Below are positions 7,843 to 61,197 of a DNA stretch of 64,000 nt, piece after piece. Positions within the stretch are counted from its first letter, which is position 1. Each line of letters begins with the position of its first letter. A program made the position numbers and the translations under genes. The notes beneath the pieces are model-generated. The model worked only from the letters and a program-made list of their open reading frames with translations, did not search any database and had not been told where the DNA came from. The stretch comes from Candidatus Dojkabacteria bacterium (GTDB taxonomy: Bacteria; Patescibacteriota; Dojkabacteria; SC72), in assembly GCA_035271645.1 (NCBI GenBank), contig DATERJ010000012.1, forward strand, positions 28,964 to 92,963, in the 5' to 3' direction.

Positions 7843-7938
7843 AAACCTTTCTCCTTTAATTTAGATATGAATTAAAAGATACGATTTGATACTAAATAGT
7901 ACAGAGTTAAGTTGTGGATTGCAAGGAGCTGGCTTTAA

Positions 7939-8118
7939 GGTCTGACCTAGGTCTGTCCCCCAATTTCCACCCCCTTCTGCCTGTCTATCAAGGTTTGTTG
8001 GTTTGGATACTTCTGATGACAGCTTACAAAGTTCATCCGAAATACGACGCTTTGGACTAGGAAACCGTTGTACAAGGAGAGAACCTTTGAACATGGAAGG
8101 TCTGACCTACCCCAGACC
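7939..8118. repeat. hairpin-bounded intergenic repeat element, copy A (about 180 nt; inverted relative to copy C)
   Basis: Termini GGTCTGACCTAGGTCTGTCCCCC ... GGTCTGACCTACCCCAGACC. The reverse complement of the core is about 90% identical over roughly 100 nt to the copy at 61003-61182 (shared ...CGGTTTCCTAGTCCAAAGCG.CGTATTTCGGATGAACTTTGTAAGC...TCCAAACCAACAAACCTTGATAG). Confidence 0.55.
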
Positions 8119-8132
8119 TTGGTAAGCTTCTG

Positions 8133-8141
8133 TGGTAGAAT
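8133..8141 (+). promoter_or_regulatory. extended -10 promoter element TGgTAGAAT immediately upstream of dus (predicted leaderless or near-leaderless)
   Basis: TG-n-TAGAAT at 8133-8141. The predicted TSS coincides with the dus ATG at 8148. No SD. Confidence 0.35.
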
Positions 8142-8147
8142 ATCTCT

Positions 8148-9092
8148 ATGAACATATACAGACAGATACTTAAGAAGAAAGGTCACATTCTGGCCCTTGC
8201 CCCTATGGAAGGTGTTACTGACACTGTTTTTAGGCAGGTTTTATGCAAAATTGGTAAACCAGATCTGTTTTTTACAGAATTTCTTAATGTTGAAGGTTTC
8301 TGTTCTAAAGGAAGGGAGAAAGTTATACATAGGTTGGATTTTAGGAATATTGAGAAACCTGTGGTTGTACAACTTTGGGGGAATGTTCCTGAGTATTATG
8401 CTGAAACTGTTGAATATGTAAAGACTCTTAATCCAGATGGTATAGATATTAACATGGGTTGTTCTGTTAGAGATGTGCTTTCTAGTGGAAGAGGTTCTGC
8501 TTTGATAAATGACAAGGTATTAGCTAAGGAGATAATTGATGTTGTTAAGGAGAGTGCAGGTGATTTACCTGTTAGTGTGAAGACTAGGATTGGTTTTGAC
8601 AAGATTGATACAGAGGAATGGATTGGCTTTTTGCTTGAGCAAGGTTTGGATATGATTACGGTTCATGGAAGACTTTCGAGAGAGGGTTACTCTACTCCAT
8701 CTAGGTGGGATGAGATAGCCAAGTGTGTAAAGTTAAGAAATGAAATTGCTCCTGATACTATTGTTTTAGGAAATGGTGATGTGAAGGATATTGAACAGGC
8801 TAAGGAATATGTAGATAGATATGGTGTTGATGGCGTTATGATTGGTAGAGCTATACTGACTAATCCATGGTTGTTTAGTGGTAGGAAGCCAGAGGATATA
8901 TCTAAGGAAGAGAGAGTTGAGGTTCTAAAAAAACATTTAGAGATTTTTGAGAAAGAAAGAGGAGAGATGAATATATTTAACAGTCAGAAGAAGTATATTA
9001 AGGCATACATTAGTAATTTTGATACAGCAGGAGAATTGAGATCTAAGCTTATGGATACAAGTAGTTCTCTGGAGATTATGGATATACTTTGA
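8148..9092 (+). CDS. dus: tRNA-dihydrouridine synthase
   Basis: 314 aa. LAPMEGVTDTVFR, TIM-barrel Dus motifs, DINMGC (catalytic Cys), VHGR. Confidence 0.85.
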   Translation: MNIYRQILKKKGHILALAPMEGVTDTVFRQVLCKIGKPDLFFTEFLNVEGFCSKGREKVIHRLDFRNIEKPVVVQLWGNVPEYYAETVEYVKTLNPDGIDINMGCSVRDVLSSGRGSALINDKVLAKEIIDVVKESAGDLPVSVKTRIGFDKIDTEEWIGFLLEQGLDMITVHGRLSREGYSTPSRWDEIAKCVKLRNEIAPDTIVLGNGDVKDIEQAKEYVDRYGVDGVMIGRAILTNPWLFSGRKPEDISKEERVEVLKKHLEIFEKERGEMNIFNSQKKYIKAYISNFDTAGELRSKLMDTSSSLEIMDIL

Positions 9093-22031: not shown

Positions 22032-22071
22032 TGGCTAGTTAATACATCTTCTTCTGTGATATACTTTCCAC

Positions 22072-36197: not shown

Positions 36198-36941
36198 CTA
36201 TTTAACAATAAAGAAAGAAATTACATTCAAACCAAGATTGATACTTTCAACTAATTTTAGATGTTTGATATCAATCTTCTCTAAATCATATCTCTTAGGA
36301 TGTTTAAGTATCAAAGCACCTTTCCATTTCTTTGTTTTTTGGTCTTGTACTCCAGGTAGTAGTTCTGATGCCATGTTAATAACTTGTTCCATCTTAAATG
36401 TTTTCTTTGTGTTAAAAAGTTTGTATGGGGGATCCATGAAGATAATGTCAAAGGTTTGAATATCCTCTTTCTCTTTGTTTGTCATTCTAAAGAGATAATC
36501 CTCTACCTTCTCTTTAAGAACTTCTGATTCTATTAGGAATCCAGTATGAGCTACATTCTTCTTAAGGACAGCTTCAGCATTCTTTGATGTATCTACAAAT
36601 GTAGCACTCTTTGCACCTCTGGAGAGTGCTTCTAATCCAAATGAACCAGCACCTGCATAGAGATCGAGAATGTCTTTGTTTACAATATCTTCCCTTAGAA
36701 TATCAAAGACTCTAACCTTCATTCTATCTGTCATGGGTCTTGTGGCTTTGGGTACTTCAAGAGTAAAGTTTCTAGCTTTACCTCCTGTTATTCTAACAGT
36801 TGTTGTAATGGTAGGTTCTTTACTCATGAGTCTTTCTTTAAGAAATGTTTCTTCCATTTCTATGAAGTCTTCAGGAGTATCTAATCTCCATTTGTTTTTC
36901 TCTTTTCTTATTTTTTTAAATGAATCGTGTTTTAAACTCAT
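36198..36941 (-). CDS. rsmD: 16S rRNA (guanine966-N2)-methyltransferase RsmD-family
   Basis: 247 aa. ITGGKARN, DLYAGAGSFGLEALSRGA, DPPY. Confidence 0.7.
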   Translation of the reverse strand: MSLKHDSFKKIRKEKNKWRLDTPEDFIEMEETFLKERLMSKEPTITTTVRITGGKARNFTLEVPKATRPMTDRMKVRVFDILREDIVNKDILDLYAGAGSFGLEALSRGAKSATFVDTSKNAEAVLKKNVAHTGFLIESEVLKEKVEDYLFRMTNKEKEDIQTFDIIFMDPPYKLFNTKKTFKMEQVINMASELLPGVQDQKTKKWKGALILKHPKRYDLEKIDIKHLKLVESINLGLNVISFFIVK

Positions 36942-37044
36942 GTGTATATTATATCTTTTTTATACAAAAAGAAAAAAGCCCTAAGACTTATGAGATATAT
37001 ATTAATATTTTTATCTCTGCTTAGAGCTGTTTGTTCTTTATACA

Positions 37045-37389
37045 TTACTTGTTTGTTCTGTCTTTCTTTACAATTTCCTCATCCATTTCAAGAGGGACTA
37101 AGTTAAAGTATCCTATTAGATCGTTTTTTTGAACAAGATAATTCTTTAGAGTTAGTAAATATACCTCTTCCACAGTGCCTGAAGGATATACTGGATGATC
37201 GATAAGTATGGGGAGTGTTACTTGGTTGAAAATTAAGTTGACACCGATTCCTGTCATCATACTGAACTTAAAAGCATCGCTAACAGCCTCTTCCAATGTT
37301 GAGCCTTCCTGTGCACTAATTGGTATTCGCCATGGTATTCTTAGATGTGGGAATTCCTTCTTCCTTATTGTAGACAACATCTTTATCAC
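37045..37389 (-). CDS. hypothetical protein (114 aa)
   Basis: ORF only. Confidence 0.4.
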   Translation of the reverse strand: MIKMLSTIRKKEFPHLRIPWRIPISAQEGSTLEEAVSDAFKFSMMTGIGVNLIFNQVTLPILIDHPVYPSGTVEEVYLLTLKNYLVQKNDLIGYFNLVPLEMDEEIVKKDRTNK

Positions 37390-37470
37390 CTTTTCCTTTC
37401 TTTTTGAATGTTTTTTAATTGTACAAAGAACCCTTAATTATACCACAGAACGATTGGGAACACTATGGGG

Positions 37471-37926
37471 TCAACCCCTTCTCGTTATCTCATACAAAAC
37501 AGTAGTTGCACAGTTAGCAACATTCAAAGATTCCTTCTTACCTCTCATAGGGACAAAAATCTTCTTGTCTGAATCTTTTAAAATCTCTTCCCCTACTCCC
37601 ATCTTCTCATGACCAAATACTAATGCTAACTTATGAGGATACTTAACTTTTTGAAAATCCTCTGCATCTTCAGTTAATTCTACCGAATATATTGGAATAT
37701 TCTGCTCTCTAATCTCCTCTAATGCTTCTTGTGTAGTATCATAATGTTGGGAAGGAACCATATCTATTGCACCAAGAGCTGTCTTCTCTAGTTTAGGATT
37801 ATCAATATCCGCTGTCATACCACAAAGATATATCTTCTTTACACTCCCTGCTCCATCAGCAGATCTAAAAATACTACCAACATTAAAAACAGAACGAATA
37901 TTATCAAGTACAATATGTATCTCCAT
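37471..37926 (-). CDS. SpoU/TrmH-family RNA 2'-O-methyltransferase (TrmL-like size)
   Basis: 151 aa. RNVGSIFRSADGAG, LVFGHEKMGV, SLNVANCATTVLYE (SPOUT knot motifs). Confidence 0.75.
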   Translation of the reverse strand: MEIHIVLDNIRSVFNVGSIFRSADGAGSVKKIYLCGMTADIDNPKLEKTALGAIDMVPSQHYDTTQEALEEIREQNIPIYSVELTEDAEDFQKVKYPHKLALVFGHEKMGVGEEILKDSDKKIFVPMRGKKESLNVANCATTVLYEITRRG

Positions 37927-40059: not shown

Positions 40060-40106
40060 ATTCTATTCTATCTCTTTTTGGAGGGTTTTGTAAATTACTA
40101 AAAGCG

Positions 40107-40865
40107 TTACTTCTTCTTTGGTGAGATATATGCCATGTATTCGCTGATGACTTTATTGGGTTCACCAATGTCTTTGACTTCTCCACCCTCTAACCACAGA
40201 ACTTCATCACACACTTCTTTTAGTTGTCCCATATTGTGAGAAACGATTATAACTGTTTTGGTTTTATCAAAGATAATTTCTTTAATCTTGTTAAAACTTT
40301 TCTCTCTAAAGGAAGTATCTCCAACCGACAGAATTTCATCTATTAGGATAATGTCAGCTTCGAAAATTGCTGTGATGGAGAAAGCTAGTTTAGAAACCAT
40401 TCCTGAAGAATATGTACTTATTGGTTTGTATATGAAGTCTCCCAGTTCAGAAAATTCAATAATTTCATCTATTTTAGATTCTATTTGACTTTTGCTAAAA
40501 CCTAGAAGGAGTCCTGATATGTAAATGTTCTCATAACCTGTAAGTCTACTTTTAAATCCTACTCCAATTGCTTGCAATGATACTGTATTATTAAACAGCT
40601 CTATTGTTCCCTCATCGGGAGAGAATATTCCTGCAATAGCTTTTAGGAGGGTAGATTTACCACTACCATTCGAACCGATGACACCAAGAATTTTACCTTC
40701 TTCTAATTCAAAGTTAACATTTTTTAAAGCTTGGAAGTAATCGGATTTAACTCCTTTGAGTTTTAATAGGTTTCTTTTTATAGAATACGGCTGAATGATA
40801 CGGTAACTGAGTGATACATTTGTTAATCTTAATGCTATGTTTTTCTTTTCTTTCTCCTTGCTCAT
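40107..40865 (-). CDS. ABC transporter ATP-binding protein, polysaccharide/teichoic-acid exporter type (TagH/Wzt-like)
   Basis: 252 aa. Walker A GSNGSGKST, signature SGMVSKLAFS, Walker B ILIDE. Confidence 0.85.
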   Translation of the reverse strand: MSKEKEKKNIALRLTNVSLSYRIIQPYSIKRNLLKLKGVKSDYFQALKNVNFELEEGKILGVIGSNGSGKSTLLKAIAGIFSPDEGTIELFNNTVSLQAIGVGFKSRLTGYENIYISGLLLGFSKSQIESKIDEIIEFSELGDFIYKPISTYSSGMVSKLAFSITAIFEADIILIDEILSVGDTSFREKSFNKIKEIIFDKTKTVIIVSHNMGQLKEVCDEVLWLEGGEVKDIGEPNKVISEYMAYISPKKK

Positions 40866-40870
40866 GATTC

Positions 40871-41653
40871 TTAAGATATCTTGGCGTAAGAGTTCTCATG
40901 CTTTTGTACTATGTGAATACCGGTAATAATGAGAACAATTGAAATAGCCAACCAAATTAAATAATATTTTATGTTTAATCCTTTTTCATATAGCATAACG
41001 TTTCTCATTTGATCTATAATGAACGCTATTGGGTTGCAAGTTAATAGTATTTTGTTAAAAGGTGCAGGAACTCTGCTTCCAATGTCATAGAAGATACCTG
41101 TTAGATAGAATACTATTTTCAAAGTAATGTTTGTTAAGTTAAATAAATCTTCAACATATACCCCAAAGTGTAGTAGAAACAGGGATATGCCAAAAGATAT
41201 TAGGTATAATAGAAGTAATAAAGGTAAGAACCATAATATGTTAATGGTTATAGGAACTTTTAATATGAAAAGTAAGATGAATATTAGAGTATAAGAGATT
41301 AGGCTCTTGAATAAGTAAACAAAGCTTTTTTGTAGTAACAAAATATATTTAGGAACGTAAATCTTACTAGTAATATGTTTATGGTCTCTTATCGCTTTTA
41401 CAGAACCAGATAACATTAGATTGAAGAAATTCCAGCTTGTCAATGCTATTAGTACAAAAGCTGGGAAGTAGTCTTCTGCTGATTTAAAGACAACTTTACC
41501 AATGAAGATGTAGATTAAAGTAAAAGCTAAAGGGTCGAGTATCCACCAAAACCAGTTGAGATAGGAGTTTGCAACCTCGCTTTTTAAATCAGACTTTGCT
41601 GAATAAACAGAATAGAAAAAATATTTTTTTAGATTCTCAAAGAATTTTAACAT
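40871..41653 (-). CDS. ABC-2 type transporter permease (TagG/Wzm-like)
   Basis: 260 aa with 6 TM helices. Directly upstream of the ATPase gene. Confidence 0.8.
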   Translation of the reverse strand: MLKFFENLKKYFFYSVYSAKSDLKSEVANSYLNWFWWILDPLAFTLIYIFIGKVVFKSAEDYFPAFVLIALTSWNFFNLMLSGSVKAIRDHKHITSKIYVPKYILLLQKSFVYLFKSLISYTLIFILLFILKVPITINILWFLPLLLLLYLISFGISLFLLHFGVYVEDLFNLTNITLKIVFYLTGIFYDIGSRVPAPFNKILLTCNPIAFIIDQMRNVMLYEKGLNIKYYLIWLAISIVLIITGIHIVQKHENSYAKIS

Positions 41654-42693
41654 GTCTCTTCTTCTAAATGCTTAATTGTTCTTGCAAAGCCATCCTTTAG
41701 ATCATATCTTCCTTTATATCCTAAACCTTTGATCTTTTCATTGGATAGTATTCCTAATGAGAAAGGAGCATAGGAAGCATTCTTTGTCTCCTGAACTTTT
41801 TGAACGACTTTGATTTTGTCACTAAAACTAGCAATGAGTTCTGCTAACTCTTTAATACTAATCTCATTCTCAGGATCGGAGACATTGTAAATGAGTTCTT
41901 CCTTTGGTGCAAGTAGGAGTACTTTAAACATTGCGTTGATAGCATCACCTATATAGGTATAGGTTCTCCTAGCTTCTCCTGTACTGTTCATGACTATGTC
42001 TTCATTGTTCATATAGTTTAGGAGGAAATCTGACTGAACTCGTCCATCGTGTATATTAATTCCAGGTCCGTATGTATGAGCTAGACGAACGGCTTTAACA
42101 TTTAAATCATATTGATATTGGTAACATGCTAGTAGGTTTTCTGCATTTTTTTTGCTTTCGGAGTAAGAGTTTCTAACTATTAAATGATCTAACTTTCCAT
42201 ATGGACCTTCTTCATAGAAAAATTTCTGGTCACTTGCAGCTTCTCCATAGATTTCTCTTGATGAAATGAATAGATATCCTTTACTGTTACTCTCTTTTGC
42301 AAGTTTTAATGTATTTATTGTTCCAAGAGTATTTGCTAGATTAACTCCTAATGGGTCAACCTTCATAACCTTAGGACTAGCAGGCCCAGCGGTATGTATT
42401 ACATAATCGATTTTCTCATCAATCTTTATTTCCTCTGTCACATCTTGTATCAAAAATTTAATGGTTTTATCTTCTTGTATTTCCTTAGGAAGTTTATCTT
42501 TATTTCTAACAAGCAATATAATTTTGTGGTTTTTGTTGTATAGCTTGTTTAATAAATATACCGTGTAGAGGAAATATCCTCCTATTAAGCCTGTTGCACC
42601 TGTGATAAAAAAAGTACTATCCGCTAAATCTAGAAGATTGTTGTCCTTTATTATGTTTTCAACATCTTCTTTTATAATGCTGGTGATTTTCAT
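41647..42693 (-). CDS. NAD-dependent epimerase/dehydratase (extended SDR) family protein
   Basis: 348 aa. FITGATGLIGGYF Rossmann motif. YxxxK (YSESK). Confidence 0.8.
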   Translation of the reverse strand: MKITSIIKEDVENIIKDNNLLDLADSTFFITGATGLIGGYFLYTVYLLNKLYNKNHKIILLVRNKDKLPKEIQEDKTIKFLIQDVTEEIKIDEKIDYVIHTAGPASPKVMKVDPLGVNLANTLGTINTLKLAKESNSKGYLFISSREIYGEAASDQKFFYEEGPYGKLDHLIVRNSYSESKKNAENLLACYQYQYDLNVKAVRLAHTYGPGINIHDGRVQSDFLLNYMNNEDIVMNSTGEARRTYTYIGDAINAMFKVLLLAPKEELIYNVSDPENEISIKELAELIASFSDKIKVVQKVQETKNASYAPFSLGILSNEKIKGLGYKGRYDLKDGFARTIKHLEEETC

Positions 42694-42715
42694 TTATTTA
42701 ATATGATGATTTAAA

Positions 42716-43435
42716 TTAGTTAAATACTTCCTGATAATCCTCTGCACTTAATATGCCTAACAATCTATATATATCATCTCGTGTGGTTATTTTAATGTTT
42801 CGTCTGTGACATTCAACTGTCTTTATCTTTTTACCAAAGGACTTCATAAGAGTACAATTGTCAATGATTCCTTCGTAGTTAGGGTTAACCTTTCTTACCT
42901 TTTTGTGAGCTTCAAAAACTTCTTTGAGAAAGAAGGTCTGAGGAGCTTTTGCAACAAAACATGTGTTTCTGTCTATTACATCTTTCACTCTGAGGTTCTT
43001 ATCGAGTATGACAGGAGTTTCATAGAGTTTTGAAACAGTTACCGCAGCACCATGTTTTCTACAAGTTTTGATGTTTTTGCTAATTAGTTCTTGGTCGATA
43101 AGGGGTCTGACACCATCATGGATTAAGACTACATCATCATCGTGAGCATTTTTAGAAGCTTCCCGTAGACCAATGTAAATCGAGTCCATTCCAGTTTTTC
43201 CTCCTGTGAAGACTTTTATTTTTGTAAGTTTGTTTTCTTTAATTAAATCTTTCATGTATTCCTCATAACCGGATTTTATTACTAAAAATATCTCATCTAT
43301 TTCAGGGTGGCATACAAAATTGTTAAGTGTATGGATAATTATTTGTTTACCTCTATATTTAATAAATTGCTTTGGTTTTTCGTGTTTCATTCTCTCGCCT
43401 ACTCCACCTGCAAAAATGACTGCTTTGTTTTTCAT
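42716..43435 (-). CDS. IspD/TarI-family sugar/polyol-phosphate cytidylyltransferase
   Basis: 239 aa. AGGVGERM...KQF and VLIHDGVRP motifs. Confidence 0.8.
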   Translation of the reverse strand: MKNKAVIFAGGVGERMKHEKPKQFIKYRGKQIIIHTLNNFVCHPEIDEIFLVIKSGYEEYMKDLIKENKLTKIKVFTGGKTGMDSIYIGLREASKNAHDDDVVLIHDGVRPLIDQELISKNIKTCRKHGAAVTVSKLYETPVILDKNLRVKDVIDRNTCFVAKAPQTFFLKEVFEAHKKVRKVNPNYEGIIDNCTLMKSFGKKIKTVECHRRNIKITTRDDIYRLLGILSAEDYQEVFN

Positions 43436-44556
43436 GTTATTTTCCCTTCTTTTAAAATAAATTTAACTAACTTCTCATTAGCATTATCGATGTTTACAAC
43501 ATACTTTTTCCTCTTGTTCTGATAGAAAGTTAAATCTTCCTTCTGAATCTTTGAGTTGATTCTCTTTTGTAACTCTTTTCTATCCTTAAATACGTATCCT
43601 TTATATTCTTTCTCAATATCTATTGTCAAACCTCTATCTTCTACATATTGGTTTAAATCAGGGACATACAAAAATACGACAATATCTCTAACCATTGCAT
43701 CATATATAACACAAGAGTAATCACTGATTAATTTATCTGAAACAAACAAGAAATCGAAGGTAGTGTGTTCTTGATCATAAATCACTCTATTGTTCTCCTT
43801 TGTAAGATTTTTGATTTTGATTCGATCCTTCTCATCTAGTGGGTGAAGACTCAGTATTAAATTATGTTTCGAAAAATCAACAATAGAGAGTATGTCTTTT
43901 ATATTTTCTAATACGAGATTGTTATTTTTGAATGTGGGTGCAAATGTAATGTTTTCCCTCTCTTTTAATACTGGATATTTTTGATAAAGTTCATCTTGGA
44001 TCTCCTTTTCATATTTTTTGTTGTTTAGTAAATCTACTCTAGGGAGAGAATAGATATGAACATAACTACTGTCATATCCAAATCCTTCTGCTAAATCTTT
44101 AGCGTATTCTTTGGAGGATGCTATTATATAATCATATTGTTTATGCATATTTAAGGAGTGTGCAATGTTTTCACCTCTTCCATCTTTCTTCCCAATAATT
44201 TGCTTTCCAAATTTTTTCATTGTTCCCATGGAATGCCATATCTGAAAGACTTTTAACTCTTCTTTATGTGTAAAATTACTTACAGCTAGGGAATAACCAT
44301 CAATAATTACAACTTTTGAATTGGCAATATTAAACAGGTCTTTTAGAAGTACTAAGTAGTAGGATGGGGAGTATTTTACTTTATGACAAGAAACATAAGT
44401 CTCTATTCCTTTTTCTTTAAGGCTTGCTATCAATAATTGGAAGTCTAAACCTGGAGTATTACCTTGTCTTGATAGGAAACATACCTTGTTTCTAATCTTC
44501 CTCTTTTTAAAGAAGTGATATATGAAAGAGGTAAGTTTTATAAGAATTTTAATCAC
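43432..44556 (-). CDS. CDP-glycerol/ribitol:poly(polyol phosphate) phosphotransferase (TagF/TagB/TarL family)
   Basis: 374 aa. Glyphos_transf-like pattern (IWHSMGTMKKFG, FAPTFK). Confidence 0.7.
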   Translation of the reverse strand: MIKILIKLTSFIYHFFKKRKIRNKVCFLSRQGNTPGLDFQLLIASLKEKGIETYVSCHKVKYSPSYYLVLLKDLFNIANSKVVIIDGYSLAVSNFTHKEELKVFQIWHSMGTMKKFGKQIIGKKDGRGENIAHSLNMHKQYDYIIASSKEYAKDLAEGFGYDSSYVHIYSLPRVDLLNNKKYEKEIQDELYQKYPVLKERENITFAPTFKNNNLVLENIKDILSIVDFSKHNLILSLHPLDEKDRIKIKNLTKENNRVIYDQEHTTFDFLFVSDKLISDYSCVIYDAMVRDIVVFLYVPDLNQYVEDRGLTIDIEKEYKGYVFKDRKELQKRINSKIQKEDLTFYQNKRKKYVVNIDNANEKLVKFILKEGKIT

Positions 44557-46960
44557 TTGATTTCTTGTTAAAAATTACTTCATCAACTATCTTTTTGCAA
44601 CTGTTACCAGTTGGAATCTCAACCTCCAATTTCTTAAATGTCTTTTGCCAATCTTGAACCTCCAAGTCGTGTAGAGAATCAATTAGCTCCATCGTATTAG
44701 AAGATGGGTTAGAGCCCTCGAATTCTTCTAGTTTTCTGTGAGTTGCTCCTATGTGTTGGTATCTGTCTTTATCAGGAGCAAAGAATTTAATAGGGATATC
44801 TAAAAGCGCTGCTTCATATATATTTGATGAGAAATCGGTTATTAAGCAGTCAGTTATGAACAATAATTCATTGAAATCTGGGTAATTACTAAAATTTAGA
44901 ATGTGTTTGTAATTATTAAAGTCTATATCTATCTCTTTAACAAAAGGATGCATTTTCACTAAGAAAAGGCAGTTGTTCTCTTTGCAAAACTCCTCTATTT
45001 TATTAAAATCTAACCAATCAAAGTTGTAATATGCTGATTCTTGTCCACCACCTCTAAATGTTGGAGCAAATAAAAGAATCTTCTTGTTTTTCAAATTAGG
45101 ATACTTTTTATAGAAGCTTTTTCTCACATCATCTTTCTTTTCTAAAAAGCCATCTAATCTAGGCAAACCAGAAACGATAAATTTGTCTTTCGAGATTCCA
45201 AAAACATCTTGATATATTTCCACAAGTTTTTTTGTTGGAGCTATCGCTTTGGTGTATTTCCTGTGTGAAGAAACTGCAATATCTGGTCCTGATGGTTTTC
45301 CAAACCTTGCATACCCTACTGATTTAAAACCTACACCTGCATGCCATACTTGGACTAGCTCGACATCCTTATCTAAGTCTAAAAAGTTAAAAATCGGGGT
45401 ATAGTTGTCAACAAAGATGTAGTATGAAATACCTATGTTTATTATGCATTTTAATAGACTGAAAATGTTTTTCTCTTGGAATATATTAGCTGTACTTATT
45501 AGGAGTTTTAAATCAGTATTTTTTTGCATGTATTCGTATAAAGCTTTTAGGTTACCTCCAAGTTCTTTTGAGTTTACTGTTAGAAATAGAACTTTTTTCT
45601 TACCAAAGCGCCTAAAGGGATAAAGTACTTTATATAGAAGCATCATACTAAGTTTGCCAAGTGCAAATAGAATTCTTTTATACAATTTCCCCTTGTCTGA
45701 CATAATCCTTTTAGGATTGGGTTTTTCCACTTTCTTATAAAAGTTGAAATTGATTGCTGGGGTCTCCTCATCAAAGGTAAGAAAAGCGAGATACTGCATG
45801 TCTTTACCATATCTAAAATGGCGATCACACTCATCGATTTGGGGATATAGGGACTCACATAGCTTTATATCCTTGTAATTGTAGTGAAAGTTATATTTTC
45901 CAAATAGGAATCTGTCTTTATTCTCAACATTAACAATGTTGATTTTAAAGTGACAGGGTTTGACTTTTATCATAGGGATTTTCTCTTCGTTAGCTGTGCG
46001 GTATAAGAATAATTGTGGAAGCTCCTCAGTTAATATTAGATTAAGATATGTTCCTGTCCAGTAAATATCTTTTATTTTTATTTCATTCATATTTGTAATT
46101 GGTGTGTTAGATATATATTTTTTTTGTTTTTCTTCAAAACGTTTTATTGCGAATCTGTTTCTAGAGTTACTTAGTTCTTTAAGAACCTTTTCTTTTAAGT
46201 ATGGGTTTTGTTTGGCAATCAATTCGTTGTCTAATTCGTAGAAAGAGAGAGTGTCTTCATCCTCTTGAAAAAAGAATTGCTCATGCTCATCCTGTGTTAT
46301 CTTCTTGTATTTGTTATTAACGACATCATGTATTTCATCTCTTGTCCAAATGACCTCCTCATTTAAAATTTTTGCTGGAGTTCCTCCTATGGAAACATTT
46401 GAAGGAAATGTTTTGGAACCGAAAATGCCTGCTCTAGCTCCCACAATACTACCACTTCCAATGGTTGTTCCTTTGCTAATAAAGGCATTAGCTCCAATCC
46501 AAACATAATCTCCAACAAGGACAGAGGCATTTGGGTTTATGAGTTCTTCTCCCTCTACTTTATATACACTATGTGCATCTGTTGTCCTAATAGTGATGTT
46601 TTCAGAGAGCATGGCTTCATTTCCAATGAAAACGTTTGTATCGCTAGCAATAATCCCAGTAAATGGGGTTTTGGTTTTGATTGAAGCATTCTCTCCAAAA
46701 TAGAAAGAAGCATTGCTCCACAAATCAATCCTCAAATTAAGAAAATTTTTGGTGTTTTTAGTTCTTTTTGCTATATAGACAAGAGAATTATTGCCTAAAA
46801 ATCTAATGTCGGCTTTGTGTAGATTGATTCCTTTTTCTATGATTAGTAGGTTATTTTTAGAATCTTCCTTGAAAGAAATTACAGACTCGTTTAATTCACC
46901 TTCGCAGATAACTTTGTTCTTTCCTATATTACCTCCTTCTTTCCTGTATTGTAGATACAT
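44549..46960 (-). CDS. fusion protein: N-terminal hexapeptide-repeat (LbetaH) acyltransferase + C-terminal TagF-like polyol-phosphate transferase
   Basis: 803 aa. Residues about 90-200 carry hexapeptide repeats (GANAFISKGTTIGSGSIVGARAGIFG). C-terminal half carries VWHAGVGFKSVGY and FAPTFRGGG, as in TagF-family enzymes. Confidence 0.75.
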   Translation of the reverse strand: MYLQYRKEGGNIGKNKVICEGELNESVISFKEDSKNNLLIIEKGINLHKADIRFLGNNSLVYIAKRTKNTKNFLNLRIDLWSNASFYFGENASIKTKTPFTGIIASDTNVFIGNEAMLSENITIRTTDAHSVYKVEGEELINPNASVLVGDYVWIGANAFISKGTTIGSGSIVGARAGIFGSKTFPSNVSIGGTPAKILNEEVIWTRDEIHDVVNNKYKKITQDEHEQFFFQEDEDTLSFYELDNELIAKQNPYLKEKVLKELSNSRNRFAIKRFEEKQKKYISNTPITNMNEIKIKDIYWTGTYLNLILTEELPQLFLYRTANEEKIPMIKVKPCHFKINIVNVENKDRFLFGKYNFHYNYKDIKLCESLYPQIDECDRHFRYGKDMQYLAFLTFDEETPAINFNFYKKVEKPNPKRIMSDKGKLYKRILFALGKLSMMLLYKVLYPFRRFGKKKVLFLTVNSKELGGNLKALYEYMQKNTDLKLLISTANIFQEKNIFSLLKCIINIGISYYIFVDNYTPIFNFLDLDKDVELVQVWHAGVGFKSVGYARFGKPSGPDIAVSSHRKYTKAIAPTKKLVEIYQDVFGISKDKFIVSGLPRLDGFLEKKDDVRKSFYKKYPNLKNKKILLFAPTFRGGGQESAYYNFDWLDFNKIEEFCKENNCLFLVKMHPFVKEIDIDFNNYKHILNFSNYPDFNELLFITDCLITDFSSNIYEAALLDIPIKFFAPDKDRYQHIGATHRKLEEFEGSNPSSNTMELIDSLHDLEVQDWQKTFKKLEVEIPTGNSCKKIVDEVIFNKKSSD

Positions 46961-47074
46961 GTGGTTTTCTTGTTTAAAGTTAAGTACTTTAAATTTTTTA
47001 TAATTTATTTCCTTTGAGGGGTACTGGATTATATATATTTATGTATTTATATTCAAGATTTTTCACCCACGATG

Positions 47075-47103
47075 TTGATACTATGGGTTGTTTATGGTAT
47101 AAT
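47075..47103 (+). promoter_or_regulatory. sigma70-like promoter TTGATA-17nt-TATAAT for the SPFH lipoprotein gene
   Basis: Hexamers and spacing read directly. About 85-nt leader ending in AAAGGAAAGG SD before the GTG at 47194. Confidence 0.55.
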
Positions 47104-47193
47104 TCATCTGTCAATTCAAACGAACTGACGCTCTTTTACAACTTACTTCAAAGAAAACAAACCATCCGTAACAAAAAGAAAGGAAAGGAAAAA

Positions 47194-48390
47194 GTGAAAA
47201 AGAAAATATCTTTGTTATTCGTGTTGTCAGTTTTAGTGCTCTCATTGCTTCTAGGTGGATGTAGTTCTGCTCAAGGAGTTGGTAGTGCTAAAGTTTTAGG
47301 AGCCAGTCCAGTATGGTTTGTAATCACATTGGTGGTTTTTGTTGTTATTGGAATCCTGGTAGCTTACTTTGTTGAGCCAGAAGATGAAAAAGGCAGGCAA
47401 GGGAAGACATGGGTGTTTATTGGTCTTTTAGTCGCTTTTCTTATACTCCAAATGGTGATTGGTGGTTTTGTTACCGTTGATCAGACAGAAATCGGAGTAA
47501 AAACCAGATTTGGTAAAGCAATAGGTATTACTATGCCTGGTGGACATTTTCTTGTCCCATATATTGATAGGGTTGTGATTTTCAGCGCAAAAGATTGGAC
47601 ATACTCGACTATGGATGAAGATTTCATGGCGGTATCCACAGATGATTATGAAGATCATCCAGCATTATTGGTGACAGCTGATAATGTGCAGGCATCAGTT
47701 ACATACTCAGTTATTGGTAGAATTGATCCTGTAAGAGTAATGGATATCTATCAAAGGTATGGCTCTCTTGATGAAGCAGTTGAAAAGGCAGTAAAAGCTC
47801 CAAGTAGAATTATTGTTCGCCAAAAATTGAAAGATTTTACTGCTAAGCAAATCTATCTTGAAGTGGATAATGTTGATGCGGCGGTTGTTGCAGAATTACG
47901 ACCATTTATGGAAGATGCTGGCCTGCAACTTGTTTTCTTCGGTTTTAGGAAGCCAACACTTGGTATTAACGGAGACTATGAAACCGAGCTCAACAACGAA
48001 ATGGTGGCAGCGCAAAGAGCTTTGGTTGCTCAGCAGAATATTGCTGTCTCTGAAGCACAAGCCCAACAGGCGATTGCTACTGCCGATGGTGAAAAAGAAG
48101 TTGCTATCAGACAGGCAGAGGCTAGAGCTGCTGCTACACGTGCAGAGCAAGAGGCTATTGCCGATGCCACACTTTATACTACGCAAAAAGAAGCTGAAGG
48201 AGTTAAAATGCTTGCTGATGCAGAAGCATATAGAATTATTAAAGAAGCAGAAGCAAATGCCAAAGCTAATACACTACTTGCAGCGGTGCTAACACCTGAC
48301 TTAATCCAGTATATTAAGTTAATACGATGGAATGGTGTATTGCCAATGTATACTGGTATGGATGCTGGGATTTTAATATCTCCAGAATAA
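47194..48390 (+). CDS. SPFH/Band-7 (prohibitin/HflK-like) domain lipoprotein with Ala/Gln-rich coiled-coil C-terminus
   Basis: GTG start with SD, in place of the track's TTG start at 47014 that lies upstream of the promoter. Lipobox LLLGGC. SPFH core (VTVDQTEIGVKTRFGK...). EAQAQQAIATADGEKEVAIRQAEARAAATRAEQEA. Confidence 0.7.
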   Translation: MKKKISLLFVLSVLVLSLLLGGCSSAQGVGSAKVLGASPVWFVITLVVFVVIGILVAYFVEPEDEKGRQGKTWVFIGLLVAFLILQMVIGGFVTVDQTEIGVKTRFGKAIGITMPGGHFLVPYIDRVVIFSAKDWTYSTMDEDFMAVSTDDYEDHPALLVTADNVQASVTYSVIGRIDPVRVMDIYQRYGSLDEAVEKAVKAPSRIIVRQKLKDFTAKQIYLEVDNVDAAVVAELRPFMEDAGLQLVFFGFRKPTLGINGDYETELNNEMVAAQRALVAQQNIAVSEAQAQQAIATADGEKEVAIRQAEARAAATRAEQEAIADATLYTTQKEAEGVKMLADAEAYRIIKEAEANAKANTLLAAVLTPDLIQYIKLIRWNGVLPMYTGMDAGILISPE

Positions 48391-48424
48391 TAAATTTTTA
48401 TTGAAGTAAGTCGAAAGAGTAAAA

Positions 48425-48473
48425 GGGGTTGTGTAGATCTTCTCTACATTAGTATTGAAAATCACACAACCCT
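48425..48473. terminator. convergent-gene hairpin (GGGGTTGTGT...ACACAACCC with nested GTAGA-TCTTC-TCTAC), candidate bidirectional terminator
   Basis: Lies between the SPFH gene (+) and the relA/spoT homolog (-). A T-rich run follows on the plus strand. Confidence 0.4.
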
Positions 48474-48482
48474 TCTATTCCT

Positions 48483-49946
48483 TTATTTAACCCCTATCTT
48501 TAAATTCTTCTTAATCTTACTCCTAGCAGTAGGAGAATTAGCATATTTAAGAGTTGTATCCTTCTGATATCTTTTGTTCTTGTCCACCTTAATTTCAACA
48601 GTATCCCCTGTTTTTAACTCTTGTCCCAATTTGGCAGGTTTACCATTAATCTTAGCTGATTCCATACTATTTCCTATATCTGTATGTAACTTAAATGCGA
48701 AATCTAAAGGAGTATCTCCTTTGTTTAATTGAATAATTTTACCTTTAGGTGTAAAAGGGAAAACCTCATCTTCGAAGATGTTACATATAATTGGGAAACT
48801 CTTTGTTCTCTTTGTTTCTTCCCTACTCTTAGCTATCTCATCTTGTATATCTTTTACCCAATCATATTTGTTGGTTGGCTTAGCAAACCTTGATTTACTA
48901 GCTTTGTATGCAATGTGGGAGGCTTTACCAAAAGTATTCTCGTAATACATCTCTTCTGTAAGAATCTGTATCTCTATATACATATCCGAAATCTCAGGGA
49001 ATCTAATTGGAAATTGTACAGCTCTGTATCCATTTGGTTTTGGATTTGATATATAGTCATCGTATCTCTCTTCATTTATCTCTCCCCTATCCATTAGTTT
49101 CTCAATGACTAGATAACAAGAATCTTCATCGGAAGCGGTAATTCTAAAAGCAATTAAATCATCTAATCTTCTAATATTTGGATCAATCCACTCCTTTTCA
49201 TATTTTTTTAATTTGTTGTAAATACTATATTTGTTCTTAATTCTTCCTTGTATCTCTGGTTTTACCTTGGATTCCTTTATACATTCTTTAATAGTTTTTT
49301 CATATTGCTTTTGTAATTTGGGGCATATATCTAACGCATCCATCTTGTTTGTAATACTTTGATATTCAAGAGGTAGGTAGTACTTAAAAGATGTTTCTTC
49401 TAGCTGTGCTCTTAGTTTTTCTAAATGAAGGTATTCTGCAAGTTTTGCATATATGTTAATGGCTTTGTAAAGCTTACTTTTTTTCTCGTTTGCGGGAATC
49501 TCATCAAATGAAAGGACATCGTGCAGAGTGTCATATATTTTAAGATATACAGGTCTAAGGTCTTTTGAGGTGTTTAGAATATATTTAATGATTATTTCAG
49601 GATTGGTATCTTTACTATCTGTGCCTCTTTTAATTTTTGTAATGCCATCAAGTATATTTAATACATCTACTCCAAACTCTTTAGTAATTTCTTTTCTTGC
49701 TTTTTCATCTAATGTCATTTCATGGAAGAGTGTGGCAAAAGCTGTATTTAAATCTAGTCCTTCTTCTAAAAGCGATATGGCAATTTTGAGTGTATGATTA
49801 ACCATCGGTTCATTGTTGTACCTGTATGAGTTTTTGTATTTCTCTTCTGAGTAAGATATTGCCTTTTCTAGGTCATCCCCAAAAATCTTGGGTACAAGAG
49901 ATTGTATCCTGCTTTTTAATACACCAGTTGGTGTTATTTTTTCCAT
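48483..49946 (-). CDS. RelA/SpoT-homolog (p)ppGpp synthetase with degenerate HD domain and TGS domain
   Basis: 487 aa. N-terminal HD-like region with HE in place of HD (TLFHEMTLDE). Nucleotidyltransferase/synthetase region (RIKNKYSIYNKL...GYRAVQF). TGS-like C-terminus (VFPFTPKGKIIQLNKGDTPLDFAFKLHTDIG). No ACT domain. Confidence 0.75.
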   Translation of the reverse strand: MEKITPTGVLKSRIQSLVPKIFGDDLEKAISYSEEKYKNSYRYNNEPMVNHTLKIAISLLEEGLDLNTAFATLFHEMTLDEKARKEITKEFGVDVLNILDGITKIKRGTDSKDTNPEIIIKYILNTSKDLRPVYLKIYDTLHDVLSFDEIPANEKKSKLYKAINIYAKLAEYLHLEKLRAQLEETSFKYYLPLEYQSITNKMDALDICPKLQKQYEKTIKECIKESKVKPEIQGRIKNKYSIYNKLKKYEKEWIDPNIRRLDDLIAFRITASDEDSCYLVIEKLMDRGEINEERYDDYISNPKPNGYRAVQFPIRFPEISDMYIEIQILTEEMYYENTFGKASHIAYKASKSRFAKPTNKYDWVKDIQDEIAKSREETKRTKSFPIICNIFEDEVFPFTPKGKIIQLNKGDTPLDFAFKLHTDIGNSMESAKINGKPAKLGQELKTGDTVEIKVDKNKRYQKDTTLKYANSPTARSKIKKNLKIGVK

Positions 49947-51178: not shown

Positions 51179-51218
51179 GTTTTGATTATATATGTATTTG
51201 GTGGATTTAGCTATATCT

Positions 51219-52424
51219 CTACTTCTTAATATACTTTCTATATTTTAATTTATCTGGCATACATTGTTGATCTGACTTCTTACTTGGTAAATCATGGTCA
51301 TATTCATAGTCTTTACCATATCCAATATCTTTCATTAGTTTTGTAGGAGCATTTCGTATATTCATAGGTACTGGAAGATTGCCATACTTCTCAATATCTA
51401 CTTTTACCTCACCCTCTACTCTGTATGCTGTATTGTCCTTAGGTGCATTAGAGAGATATATTGCTAATTGCATAAGGAATACTTCACATTCTGGCATACC
51501 AATCTTCTGACAAGCTTCATATACAGCATTTGCTAATATGACAGCTTGTGGGTCTGCATTACCGATATCTTCACTTGCAAACCTTAACATTCTTCTTGCA
51601 ATGTATAGTGGGTCTTCTCCTCCTGCTAACATTCTTCCAGTCCAGTAACAAGCAGCATCAGGATTAGATGACCTCATTGATTTGTGTATAGCGGAGATAA
51701 TGTTGTAGTGTTCTTCTCCTGTTTTGTCATAGTATACTGGCTTTTGTACTGTTGTTGTTAATATATCCATAGTTATTTCTTTCTTCTCTTCATCTTTTGC
51801 ATTTGCTAGTGTAGAACTCATTTCCAATATATTTAATGCAGACCTAATATCTCCATTTGAGAGATTAGCCATTTGTTCTAGTACTTTCTTTGATATTTTA
51901 ATCTCTGGATATTCTTCCTTTGATATTCGTTTTAGGAGGTTGTATATATCTTCTTCTGTTTGTTGTTTGAATACAAATACTTTTGTTCTAGAAAGAAGTG
52001 CAGATATTACAGTAAATGATGGGTTCTCTGTTGTTGCACCGATTAGTGTAATGATTCCTTTCTCTACATATGGTAGGAGTGTGTCTTGTTGTGCTTTGTT
52101 CCATCTGTGTATTTCATCTAGGAAGAGGATTGTTTTTTTACCGTATTGTTGATTACCAATTGCTATTTTAATGATTTTTCTTAGATGTTCTTTCCCACTA
52201 TTTACAGCTTGCATTTTGTGAAAGTCATAGTAGAGATTAAGGGAAAGTATGTATGCTAAGGTTGTTTTACCTGTACCGGGTGGTCCCCAGAATATCATAG
52301 ATGGTATTTTACCCGTTTCCAAAAACTTCCTTATGGGGCCGTTCTTTCCTACTAGGTGTTCCTGTCCTACAAACTCTTCAAGTGTTTTAGGTCTGTATTT
52401 TGATGCTAGTGGTTCGTTAGTCAT
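51219..52424 (-). CDS. rarA: replication-associated recombination protein A (MgsA/RarA AAA+ ATPase)
   Basis: 401 aa. GPPGTGKTTLA, LFLDEIHR, C-terminal MgsA-specific helical domain. Confidence 0.85.
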   Translation of the reverse strand: MTNEPLASKYRPKTLEEFVGQEHLVGKNGPIRKFLETGKIPSMIFWGPPGTGKTTLAYILSLNLYYDFHKMQAVNSGKEHLRKIIKIAIGNQQYGKKTILFLDEIHRWNKAQQDTLLPYVEKGIITLIGATTENPSFTVISALLSRTKVFVFKQQTEEDIYNLLKRISKEEYPEIKISKKVLEQMANLSNGDIRSALNILEMSSTLANAKDEEKKEITMDILTTTVQKPVYYDKTGEEHYNIISAIHKSMRSSNPDAACYWTGRMLAGGEDPLYIARRMLRFASEDIGNADPQAVILANAVYEACQKIGMPECEVFLMQLAIYLSNAPKDNTAYRVEGEVKVDIEKYGNLPVPMNIRNAPTKLMKDIGYGKDYEYDHDLPSKKSDQQCMPDKLKYRKYIKK

Positions 52425-52462
52425 ACCTGATTATACTACATAGTGGTGGTATAGGTGTTAAA

Positions 52463-52630
52463 GGTCTGGTCTGGGTCAGACCTTATACATTTTACGAAAA
52501 GCGTTGTCGCACGACCATTTGGAAGGAAAGCCAGTCCAAACCGAGAAATCGTACCCAACAAGTTAATCAGGAGAAAGCGGTTGTTTTCCTGTCATAAAAG
52601 GATATTACTAAGTCAGACCTAGGTCAGACC
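52463..52630. repeat. hairpin-bounded intergenic repeat element, copy B (same termini, divergent core)
   Basis: Termini GGTCTGGTCTGGGTCAGACC ... GTCAGACCTAGGTCAGACC. The 128-nt core shares only a short block (GTCCAAACC...) with copies A and C. Confidence 0.45.
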
Positions 52631-52640
52631 TGTTGAGAGT

Positions 52641-53234
52641 CTAACCATAAATATGCAAATATTCACCATTACTTAGTTTTTCTTTCTTTTTTGCTTTTAA
52701 TCCTTTGATTTCATATCTATAACTAAATACCTCACCCCCACCCTTAATAAATTTCTCAAACTTCTTTTTCAATATACTCATACTCTTTTCATCTAAATAA
52801 CAATATATTTTTGTAAAATCTTTTAGAGATGCTTCATATATATTCTCAACATCAAAAATGATATCTTTGTTTGTAGGATACTTTAATATTCTAAATGCTC
52901 TGGCAATGATAATCATGATTGGAGAGAGGTCTAAACCATAGCATTTACACTTAGCATTACCATATGTTTCCAGTACTACCTTTCCATCTCCACAACCTAA
53001 ATCTACAAAAGTATCATCTTTCTTAAGATTCATGAAATCAATAATTTCATGAATGATATCCCTAGGAGTTTTAAGAATAGGAACTAAAAGAAGATTGATT
53101 AAAACAGTTAAAAGGAATGCTCCAATGAGCATAATCACAATTAAAACAATACCTACAGTTATTCCATTTGCCATTTGTATAGAAGAATAATATATAATTA
53201 GGTATATGATAGACGGAATCTTGTTAATTAACAA
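52641..53234 (-). CDS. class I SAM-dependent methyltransferase with N-terminal TM helix (start more likely the internal Met near 53174)
   Basis: 197 aa. VDLGCGDGK motif I. The first-ATG start overlaps truB by 29 nt on the opposite strand. The internal MANGITVG start does not. Confidence 0.6.
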   Translation of the reverse strand: MLINKIPSIIYLIIYYSSIQMANGITVGIVLIVIMLIGAFLLTVLINLLLVPILKTPRDIIHEIIDFMNLKKDDTFVDLGCGDGKVVLETYGNAKCKCYGLDLSPIMIIIARAFRILKYPTNKDIIFDVENIYEASLKDFTKIYCYLDEKSMSILKKKFEKFIKGGGEVFSYRYEIKGLKAKKKEKLSNGEYLHIYG

Positions 53235-53910
53235 GGAGAGAGATATTACATCGTATGATGTGATAAGAAAATTGAAGAGGGTTTTGCCTAATGGACAGAA
53301 GATCGGCCATGGTGGTACTTTAGATCCTTTTGCAACAGGTTTGTTAATTGTTCTACTTGGTAAAGGAACAAAGTTAATGAATACTATTCATTCATTAAAA
53401 AAGGAATATATTGTAAGAGCAGAGTTTGGTTACTCTACAGACACTCAAGATATTACTGGAAAGAAAGATAAAATGTGTGAAGATTTAGAGAAGGTATCTG
53501 TGGAGGAGATTGAAACAAAGATAAAGGAGAAATTTTTAGGTAAGATATTACAAACACCTCCAATGTTTTCAGCAAAAAAGATTAAGGGAAAGAAGGCATA
53601 TGAGTTAGCAAGAAAGGGCGAAGAAGTTAAGATAGAGCCAAAGAAAGTTGAGATATATTCTTTTGATTTAGTTAATTACAACTGGCCCTACTCTACCTTC
53701 TCTATTTCATGCTCAACAGGTACATATGTGAGAACCTTAATTCATGATTTGGGTGAAGAGATAGGTACATATGGTACAGCTATTGAACTTGAGAGAACAA
53801 AGATAGGGGGTTTTAATTTGAAAGATGCTTTTGATTCGGAAGATATTGTTGATGATAATATTGATAAAATTATTGGAAATGTAATTAATTTGGACAATTT
53901 GGAATTATGA
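53206..53910 (+). CDS. truB: tRNA pseudouridine(55) synthase
   Basis: 234 aa. Catalytic motif GHGGTLDPFATGLL. Confidence 0.85.
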   Translation: MIDGILLINKERDITSYDVIRKLKRVLPNGQKIGHGGTLDPFATGLLIVLLGKGTKLMNTIHSLKKEYIVRAEFGYSTDTQDITGKKDKMCEDLEKVSVEEIETKIKEKFLGKILQTPPMFSAKKIKGKKAYELARKGEEVKIEPKKVEIYSFDLVNYNWPYSTFSISCSTGTYVRTLIHDLGEEIGTYGTAIELERTKIGGFNLKDAFDSEDIVDDNIDKIIGNVINLDNLEL

Positions 53911-60807: not shown

Positions 60808-61002
60808 GTTTTGACTATATCATATTTCACCACTTTCTACCACTTCTTGCCACTAATATAGCTTGGGGGGCTTGGGGTGTCAAGAGAAAAACATTACAGG
60901 CTCGAATATAACACTCTGGGCCACATACTTCTCTAAAAGTAAAGCCATTTTCTATATGTGTGCTCTCCCTATTGTCATCTCCTCTGGAACCGATAGGTTT
61001 TA

Positions 61003-61182
61003 GGTCTGACCTAGGTTAGACCTTCGATTTCCTTCGGTTTTCGCATTGTACAATCGTTTCCTAGTCCAAAGCGCCGTATTTCGGATGAACTTTGTAAGCC
61101 GAAATCAGAAGTGTCCAAACCAACAAACCTTGATAGGTAGGTAGATAGGTATGGAAAACAGGGGACAGATCTGGGACAGACC
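61003..61182. repeat. hairpin-bounded intergenic repeat element, copy C (about 180 nt)
   Basis: Termini GGTCTGACCTAGGTTAGACC ... GGGGACAGATCTGGGACAGACCC. The core is near-identical to the reverse complement of copy A. Confidence 0.55.
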
Positions 61183-61197
61183 CTAAAGATGTTGGGC

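Follow-up and report, generated by a model that had tools for sequence, protein, structure and literature searches.

A repeat doublet between a methyltransferase gene and rarA in Candidatus Dojkabacteria is probably part of a RAYT-associated repeat system

What occupies the gap that separates a DOT1-like methyltransferase gene (stop at 52641) from rarA (start at 52424), two minus-strand genes in the 64-kb stretch of Candidatus Dojkabacteria DNA analysed here (the window)? The initial annotation had placed an element, B, in this gap, as the coordinates confirm, and had compared it with two further copies, A and C, which were said to carry the same terminal hairpins around a largely different core. 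It had offered two readings, one in which the termini are the functional or mobilised part and one in which the element is an RNA with B as a second family member. We set out the anatomy of B, the gene that the same repeat flanks in relatives of the window genome and the sequences that other genomes hold at the B locus. We regard B as very probably a doublet of RAYT-associated repeats, REP/BIME-like or 'TIRtron'-like in form.

Results

A, B and C are all intergenic and make up three repeat pairs in the window. B extends from 52461 to 52637 on the minus strand; it is oriented like C and inverted with respect to A. The parts of B, and the other two copies, are as follows (L and P numbers denote sequences other than the window):

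52461..52484, minus strand: right end of B, hairpin AAGGTCTGACC-CAGAC-CAGACCTT with an 8-bp stem, an internal inverted repeat
52485..52609, minus strand: core of B, 125 nt, locus-specific by core clustering, Smith-Waterman and nhmmer
52610..52631, minus strand: left repeat of B, in minus-strand reading AGGTCTGACCTAGGTCTGACTT, two tandem near-palindromic 11-mers
52632..52637, minus strand: outer 'foot' of the left repeat, CTCAAC, also present at the transposase unit of L015 (AACCTCAAC)
7937..8120, plus strand: copy A, upstream of dus, with left repeat (7938-7959), core and right hairpin (8097-8120); A/C family
61001..61184, minus strand: copy C, between mraZ and a Mur ligase gene, with right palindrome at 61002-61023

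The 22-nt left repeat of B and its CTCAAC foot lie 3 nt past the methyltransferase stop codon, and the right hairpin lies about 36 nt upstream of the rarA start. The 22 nt consist of two tandem near-palindromic 11-mers (AGGTCTGACCT AGGTCTGYCCC). A, B and C have the left-repeat layout AGGTCTGACCTAGGTCTGxxxx in common, each 11-mer approximating AGGTCnGACCT, and the right end of B has the form found at the right ends of A and C (AAGGTCTRACC-N5-CAGACCT). With at most one mismatch, the 11-mer AGGTCNGACCT occurs nine times in the window against 1.4 expected, a count that none of 100 shuffles reached, and seven of the nine matches fall within A, B and C. Similarly, the 22-nt palindrome with at most five mismatches has five sites in the window and none in each of 20 shuffles. 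These counts bear out the claim that the termini of B match those of A and C. The concern that the palindrome might be a frequent word is half borne out: it is indeed frequent in this lineage, but as a bona fide repeat family and not by chance.

The description of both termini as hairpins holds at one end only. The right end at 52461-52484 is a true hairpin, folding as single-stranded DNA at -7.7 kcal/mol (z -4.8 on one strand and -4.3 on the other), whereas the left end at 52610-52631 is a tandem of 11-mers that has no stable fold by itself (z about 0). The canonical 22-mer gives -1.7 to -3.4 kcal/mol as single-stranded DNA, with z about 0 and no stable fold, and the true single-stranded hairpins are the right-end variants of A and B. 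The two ends of B pair with each other over 20 nt at 80% complementarity, closing the predicted fold of the entire element. The repeat carries no GTAG tag of the kind that marks classical REPs and has the CTCAAC foot instead; recognition of a canonical repeat with neither stable hairpin nor GTAG may differ from that by E. coli TnpA_REP. No direct repeat that could be a target-site duplication is present beside A, B or C.

The cores of A and C are 82% identical. The core of B, by contrast, is unrelated to them, as had been proposed (at 125 nt, not 128), and clustering, Smith-Waterman and nhmmer found it unrelated also to the family 1 cores described below and to the transposase units. A short block had been thought common to the B and A/C cores, but the 9-mer concerned, GGTTTGGAC, is no more than chance would give (blastn E about 2). 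We also considered the B core as a distant homologue of the A/C cores, on the strength of a collinear Smith-Waterman alignment with z of 2-4 against mononucleotide shuffles. Because a core-only nhmmer profile of the A/C family scored -0.6 bits on B and nothing in the B orthologue, which lacks the block resembling A/C cores, we claim no homology.

We next turn to the gene with which these ends are associated. In relatives, the repeat flanks, in inverted orientation, a gene for a Y1/HUH transposase of 143-158 aa:

L015, L032: transposase gene and repeats next to tgt (in the order rny, RAYT, tgt)
L067, L074, L087, L137: transposase gene (151 aa) and repeats between a PPDK-like gene and mutS
L138-L141: transposase gene (158 aa) and repeats between spoU and rsmD, with L112 at the same site
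L142-L149: transposase gene and repeats between rny and tgt
Spirochaete contig L010 and high-GC soil contig L113: RAYT homologues flanked by GGTCTGACC 11-mers

Perfect inverted copies of AGGTCTGACCTAGGTCTGCCCC surround the gene in L074 and L137, and the first 18 nt of the B left repeat are identical (18/18) to the repeat found there; the gene is likewise flanked in L138, L015, L032 and L142. A single MAG, CAZHSU01, holds both a transposase unit with the left/right asymmetry of A, B and C (L015) and an A/C-type element (L035).

The relatives' protein matches Pfam Y1_Tnp at 35-49 bits (cutoff 23). Among NCBIfam models, REP_Tyr_transpos scored highest (36-74 bits, under the curated cutoff of 80), and the transpos_IS200 model gave at most 18.8 bits against a cutoff of 55. 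A phmmer search of the PDB with a single RAYT found no match and a profile search was needed: with a 16-sequence profile the best match was 4ER8, E. coli TnpA_REP (E = 4.5e-7, full length), ahead of ISDra2 TnpA (E = 0.013). Neither the HUH histidines nor the Y..NP motif varies; the protein motifs read NH[YF]H, FQ and Y[IL]xxNP, and many of the 5025 homologues carry the JGI name RayT. The gene occurs once per contig, with the same neighbours across lineages and no tnpB. Since the repeat flanks a RAYT-type gene in relatives, A, B and C end, as far as sequence can tell, in the cognate repeats of a domesticated-looking Y1 transposase of RAYT type. The same observation supports the initial view of the termini as the functional or mobilised part.

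Two details of these loci are recorded here in their own right. In L138 (6460-6480; also P0032 and P0039) the RAYT stop codon lies within the right repeat (…GAG GGG CAG ACC TAG), and the last RAYT residues of L138, EGQT, are encoded by the repeat. High-GC (62-70%) soil contigs contain arrays of 3-5 tandem 11-mers (GGTCTGACC plus 2 nt) with an inverted array about 55 nt away (L076 6790-6930; L113 1200-1980; also L046, L061, L066, L089, L122 and L126). The L113 arrays flank the RAYT homologue, and the same 9-mer module recurs across phyla.

Species-representative genomes were scanned with the right-end pattern and JGI metagenomes with the exact left-repeat 18-mer. Both scans led to many low-GC contigs of Dojkabacteria and of Saccharibacteria-labelled MAGs, several of which hold the transposase loci listed above; matches to the right-end pattern were mostly chance terminator hairpins of unrelated phyla. 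At low-GC loci neighbouring repeat sites most often stand 180-189 nt apart (31 pairs, a sharp peak); smaller groups fall at 140-170 nt, and another, at about 530 nt, is made up of transposase units. We extracted 43 pairs, mostly of 165-209 nt, and added copy C by hand. When the cores of these 44 pairs were clustered, a check that the initial annotation had called for, the same termini were found to bracket at least nine unrelated core families. Besides pairs there are clusters of repeats (L056, L082, L105, L127), and solo repeats are present in related contigs.

Family 1, of 208 nt, has 24 members at at least eight loci. At the spoU-rsmD site, where the 208-nt repeat pair is present in L062, L065, L088, L108, L121 and L128, its flanks and repeats on both sides, together with about 20 nt of subterminal sequence per end, agree with those of the L138 transposase unit, from which we infer that family 1 arose from this unit by internal deletion. 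The A/C family comprises ten sequences with 87% column identity at non-syntenic loci in different genomes, and both it and family 1 are dispersed as whole doublets. At individual sites, A is absent from the orthologous position in L055; C is absent from that in L128 and L130 and present in L073. No copy has a base-precise, clean empty site: the absences of A and C come with replacement of other sequence nearby, and the site downstream of 5783 was uninformative in this respect.

A full A/C-type copy often abuts a partial one (its first 82-103 nt), with one repeat in common, in BIME-like clusters (L056 5150-5450; L082 425-690; L105 1020-1290; L127 9430-9700; L114 4406-4640). The partial copies stop near a GCTTA in the core that resembles the YTTA left of full copies, a likeness that may reflect a target preference.

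By comparison, the B family counts three members, all at one locus: the window, the identical L106, and L062, in which the core is 86% and the flanks 91% identical to the window. Seven further sequences of the same species from digester and food metagenomes (L001-L007) are identical to the window at B and carry no information. The exact 18-mer scan of JGI metagenomes found B-type copies only in L062 and L106; because the scan used the left-repeat 18-mer, any other B-type copy in these samples would show up if its left repeat were intact. The idea of B as a second, multi-copy subfamily is therefore not supported, its core having been found at one locus only, in the window species and L062.

We then compared the B locus across relatives, whose closed genomes are about 750 kb in size. 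The rarA and tyrS products of the window are identical to HKM19935.1 and HKM19934.1, from a Candidatus Dojkabacteria MAG. The interval from the methyltransferase gene to the rarA promoter (ATGTAGTATAAT) was found in three states:

State 1, window and L062: B-type element
State 2, L128-L130, L133, L134: family-1-like element with another core, the methyltransferase 3' end being close to that of the window
State 3, L059, L071, L088, L121, L132: 208-nt family 1 element

The window and the state-2 group have the left junction in common (TAG, then 9-10 nt ending in TCAAC, then the repeat) and differ in core and right end. The CTCAAC foot recurs at the left junctions of elements between the methyltransferase gene and rarA in L128, L132 and L071. 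At this very locus, then, relatives hold other cores between the same left junction and rarA promoter, in keeping with the proposal that cores vary between constant termini.

Across the element, identity between L088/L121 and window 51213-53438 falls from 93% on the rarA side to 71% on the methyltransferase side. Given this drop, recombination between lineages that broke at the element or close by would suffice as an explanation, with transposase-mediated replacement as a possible alternative. In the closed genome JBMNHB01, L132 (9336-9770) has an extra 440 nt with a 59-aa opposite-strand ORF between the methyltransferase gene and the repeat pair, absent from the window.

No Y1 transposase gene was found in the 64-kb window by tblastn. 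Two sites that carry the gene in relatives are present without it:

22032..22071, no strand: empty transposase site, 40 nt between the PPDK-like gene and mutS, no repeat
36956..37483, no strand: second transposase site, between spoU and rsmD, 528 nt of unrelated, repeat-free sequence that holds an orphan 114-aa ORF

The orphan ORF (37045-37389, minus strand) has no Pfam match and fills exactly the slot between spoU and rsmD, with borders free of repeats. A Tgt search for the transposase of the window species returned no Tgt match assignable to the window genome; a tgt-linked RAYT could lie elsewhere in that genome. Several repeats of the window are degenerate, for example the left end of C (61161-61184) and loop parts of the right ends of A and B, and in the L062 orthologue the right-end stem of B is partly lost. 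Because its core is found at a single locus, its right repeat is decaying and no transposase gene lies in the window, the two sites that carry one in relatives included, B is most likely, so far as we can infer from sequence, an old and now immobile relic copy.

Finally, we examined RNA and coding readings. Searches against Rfam, which covered the entire window at the gathering threshold and B with E values as high as 10, returned only a tRNA-Val and noise. The ten-sequence A/C alignment contains 0 compensatory pairs, with a covariation term of +0.43. Placed on the single-sequence fold of B, the L062 substitutions break five of the 14 pairs that they touch, which does not differ from random placement (P = 0.14); RNAalifold on the two B orthologues gave 0 broken pairs, a circular result. 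With no Rfam match, no covariation and this substitution test, the suggestion that the element is an RNA with B as a second member found no backing. Coding readings were rejected as well: members of the 208-nt family do not keep the ORF that runs through it, either lacking its ATG or carrying deletions, and A, B and C have no ORF in common. A search for RAYT remnants inside the cores gave tblastn E above 3.

Discussion

The ends of B, the transposase gene that the same repeat flanks in relatives, and the family of pairs with unrelated cores together lead us to favour a doublet of RAYT-associated repeats. From the biochemical behaviour of TnpA_REP and of TnpA from IS200/IS605 we envisage a mechanism in which one HUH/Y1 transposase, encoded by a single-copy gene, would bind the repeat on single-stranded DNA, where the two ends may pair with each other or the hairpin form may fold on itself. 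The enzyme would cut beside the repeat and rejoin strands, so that DNA between two repeats could be moved or copied as a unit without a target-site duplication. The lack of such a duplication fits a Y1 enzyme and not a DDE enzyme. Cores would be passengers: one family would be the transposase gene after internal deletion, and others, including that of B, would drift freely. Any present-day effect of B would be incidental; the hairpin and repeat could act as a 3' stabiliser or terminator of the methyltransferase transcript, and they adjoin the rarA promoter.

How far does B itself represent a unit? It could consist of two independent insertions of solo repeats, or of an ancestral repeat and a later one, around a native methyltransferase-rarA spacer. 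This would account for a core found at one locus only (the 18-mer scan yielding just L062 and L106) and for a left repeat junction shared with relatives that have a different core, and solo repeats do exist. On the other hand, the two repeats of B are 148 nt apart from start to start, inside the 140-190 nt window of pairs with unrelated cores, and relatives without B hold other elements there and not the B core as a plain spacer. We consider separate insertions unlikely.

A single doublet could also have been mobilised in another way, as a MITE of IS200/IS605 (a 'PATE') or of a DDE transposon, outside any RAYT-type domesticated system. The arrangement of left end, cargo and right end, the existence of a transposase-bearing unit with the same ends and the origin of one family as a deletion derivative are all what such an element would display. 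However, the Y1 gene sits at conserved syntenic sites, one per contig (between rny and tgt, between the PPDK-like gene and mutS, between spoU and rsmD), the NCBIfam IS200 model has no match, the PDB profile prefers TnpA_REP, and both tnpB and a target-site duplication are missing. These points make a MITE decidedly improbable.

We hold it equally doubtful that the repeats serve as handles for cassette exchange, with the Y1 transposase or repeat-anchored recombination swapping cores of 125-165 nt in fixed intergenic slots by promoters. Such exchange would explain why three cores occur between the methyltransferase gene and rarA in genomes that are about 90% identical, and why the slot between spoU and rsmD holds a transposase gene, a 208-nt core or an orphan ORF. 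Were it true, Dojkabacteria would practise locus-specific replacement of intergenic modules, and the cores might carry regulatory function.

Read as double-stranded DNA, the 11-mers AGGTCnGACCT might be operators of a dimeric protein, with sites about 150-185 bp apart that loop or insulate promoters. Dyad symmetry, a spacing of one helical turn and a canonical repeat that does not fold as single-stranded DNA would suit operators, as would the 11-bp periodicity kept in the 3-5-unit arrays of high-GC genomes and the position of repeats against the -10 boxes of rarA and rsmD in relatives. Yet in four unrelated lineages the sites accompany a Y1 transposase gene, they vary in presence and absence and exist as dispersed copies whose cores are conserved, and no candidate regulator was identified, all of which renders operators very unlikely.

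The least credible reading of all makes the element a gene for a small structured RNA or a cis-regulatory RNA, its terminal stem-loops conserved, its body variable and B its second member. It is true that on the gene-sense strand the fold of B beats that of shuffled sequences (z -3.3), that each of A, B and C precedes a gene pointing the same way, and that the A/C core keeps its 87% column identity across genomes. But even at E up to 10 Rfam offers no match, the A/C family lacks compensatory pairs, the good fold of B is largely the mutual pairing of its two ends, the same ends flank a transposase gene, and elsewhere the element faces away from the adjacent gene.

Taking A, B and C as RAYT-associated repeats, how do they compare with known systems? 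REP/BIME-RAYT of E. coli (the REPtron) and the REPINs of Pseudomonas likewise comprise a short extragenic repeat, present in many copies and often paired, with inverted copies that flank an HUH/Y1 gene at a fixed chromosomal site, here syntenic across lineages. The best solved homologue of the relatives' protein is 4ER8, the E. coli enzyme; as in those systems, no target-site duplication is seen, and copies lie after stop codons and by promoters. Unlike there, the repeat consists of two tandem 11-mers and not of a self-folding hairpin with a 5' GTAG, the NCBIfam score is under the cutoff, and the host is a candidate-phyla-radiation bacterium with a genome of about 750 kb. BIME and REPIN spacers are short and family-specific, whereas the pairs described here enclose 125-165 nt of heterogeneous sequence. 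In comparison with REPINs, the ends of B pair over 20 nt at 80%, and the B doublet is confined to one locus while the doublets of the A/C family and family 1 are dispersed. A full-text search of the literature found no paper tying RAYT, REPIN or REP elements to the candidate phyla radiation or Dojkabacteria.

In form, TIRtrons (TIRYTs) come closer. These have the TIR motif GGGGWSAS (Di Nocera et al. 2013, PMC3733652). As in the present system, a RAYT-like gene lies within terminal inverted repeats that are not self-folding REPs (PMC3733652), and TIR copies occur elsewhere as singles, dimers or clusters. The inner repeat end here, GGGGCAGAC, corresponds to GGGGWSAS with an extra C, a near but inexact match, and the repeat family is abundant for the size of the genome, unlike that of TIRtrons. 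The protein motifs resemble, by eye, those of TnpA-Y1 subclass 2.1 (NH[YF]H, FQ, YIELNP; Quentin et al. 2018, PMC6006769), although the proteins here have 143-158 aa and lack the C-terminal HTH extension of that subclass. By these analogies, the system would be closest in form to TIRtrons and TnpA-Y1 subclass 2.1 and would work like REP/BIME-RAYT and REPINs.

Resemblances to other mobile elements are partial. With IS200/IS605 and PATEs there are in common Y1/HUH chemistry, ends that are different but related, no target duplication and derivatives that keep only the ends; the differences are the syntenic Y1 gene, one per contig, the lack of an IS200 model match and the lack of tnpB. DDE MITEs such as RUP, Correia/NEMIS and ERIC are similar in length (170-210 nt), in having terminal inverted repeats and in their intergenic location by promoters or terminators. 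They differ in that no target-site duplication is found here and the associated enzyme is a tyrosine HUH transposase.

REP/RAYT systems have been described mostly in Proteobacteria, Cyanobacteria and Bacteroidetes, and Dojkabacteria, with their genomes of about 750 kb, are thought to be poor in repetitive DNA. A related system of REP/RAYT type is now seen in Dojkabacteria, B itself being an ordinary copy and not a new RNA. As a rough extrapolation from the window and a few loci chosen by their proteins, repeat pairs may occur once per 15-20 kb and make up about 1% of the genome. The repeats appear to break metagenome assemblies, and they mark recombination junctions; masking them is advisable before any annotation of small RNAs or small ORFs in these genomes. 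The tandem 11-mers, which also lie by RAYT homologues in a spirochaete and a high-GC soil bacterium, offer a simple substrate for tests of DNA recognition by this RAYT clade.

Several further observations were made in passing. A number of contigs start or end in or by a repeat (L011 1-55, L039 1-55, L057 55-76, L077 and L117), and the elements appear to break assemblies of Dojkabacteria and of Saccharibacteria-labelled MAGs. A stretch of 8.4 kb in the window (40083-48483) is missing from all syntenic relatives, in which recG comes directly after relA/spoT (L062, L065, L071, L088, L108, L121). It encodes a Band_7 protein, two teichoic-acid enzymes of glycerophosphotransferase type, IspD, an epimerase and an ABC-2 permease, and looks like an inserted cell-envelope island.

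Last, rarA, dus and rsmD each have a -10-like box (TATAAT, TAGAAT) only 5-6 nt before their ATG, at the following positions in the window:

52430-52435, with the start codon at 52422-52424: rarA
8129-8150: dus
36939-36955: rsmD

Such short distances suggest that leaderless mRNAs are common in the window genome. In relatives, repeats directly abut such boxes.
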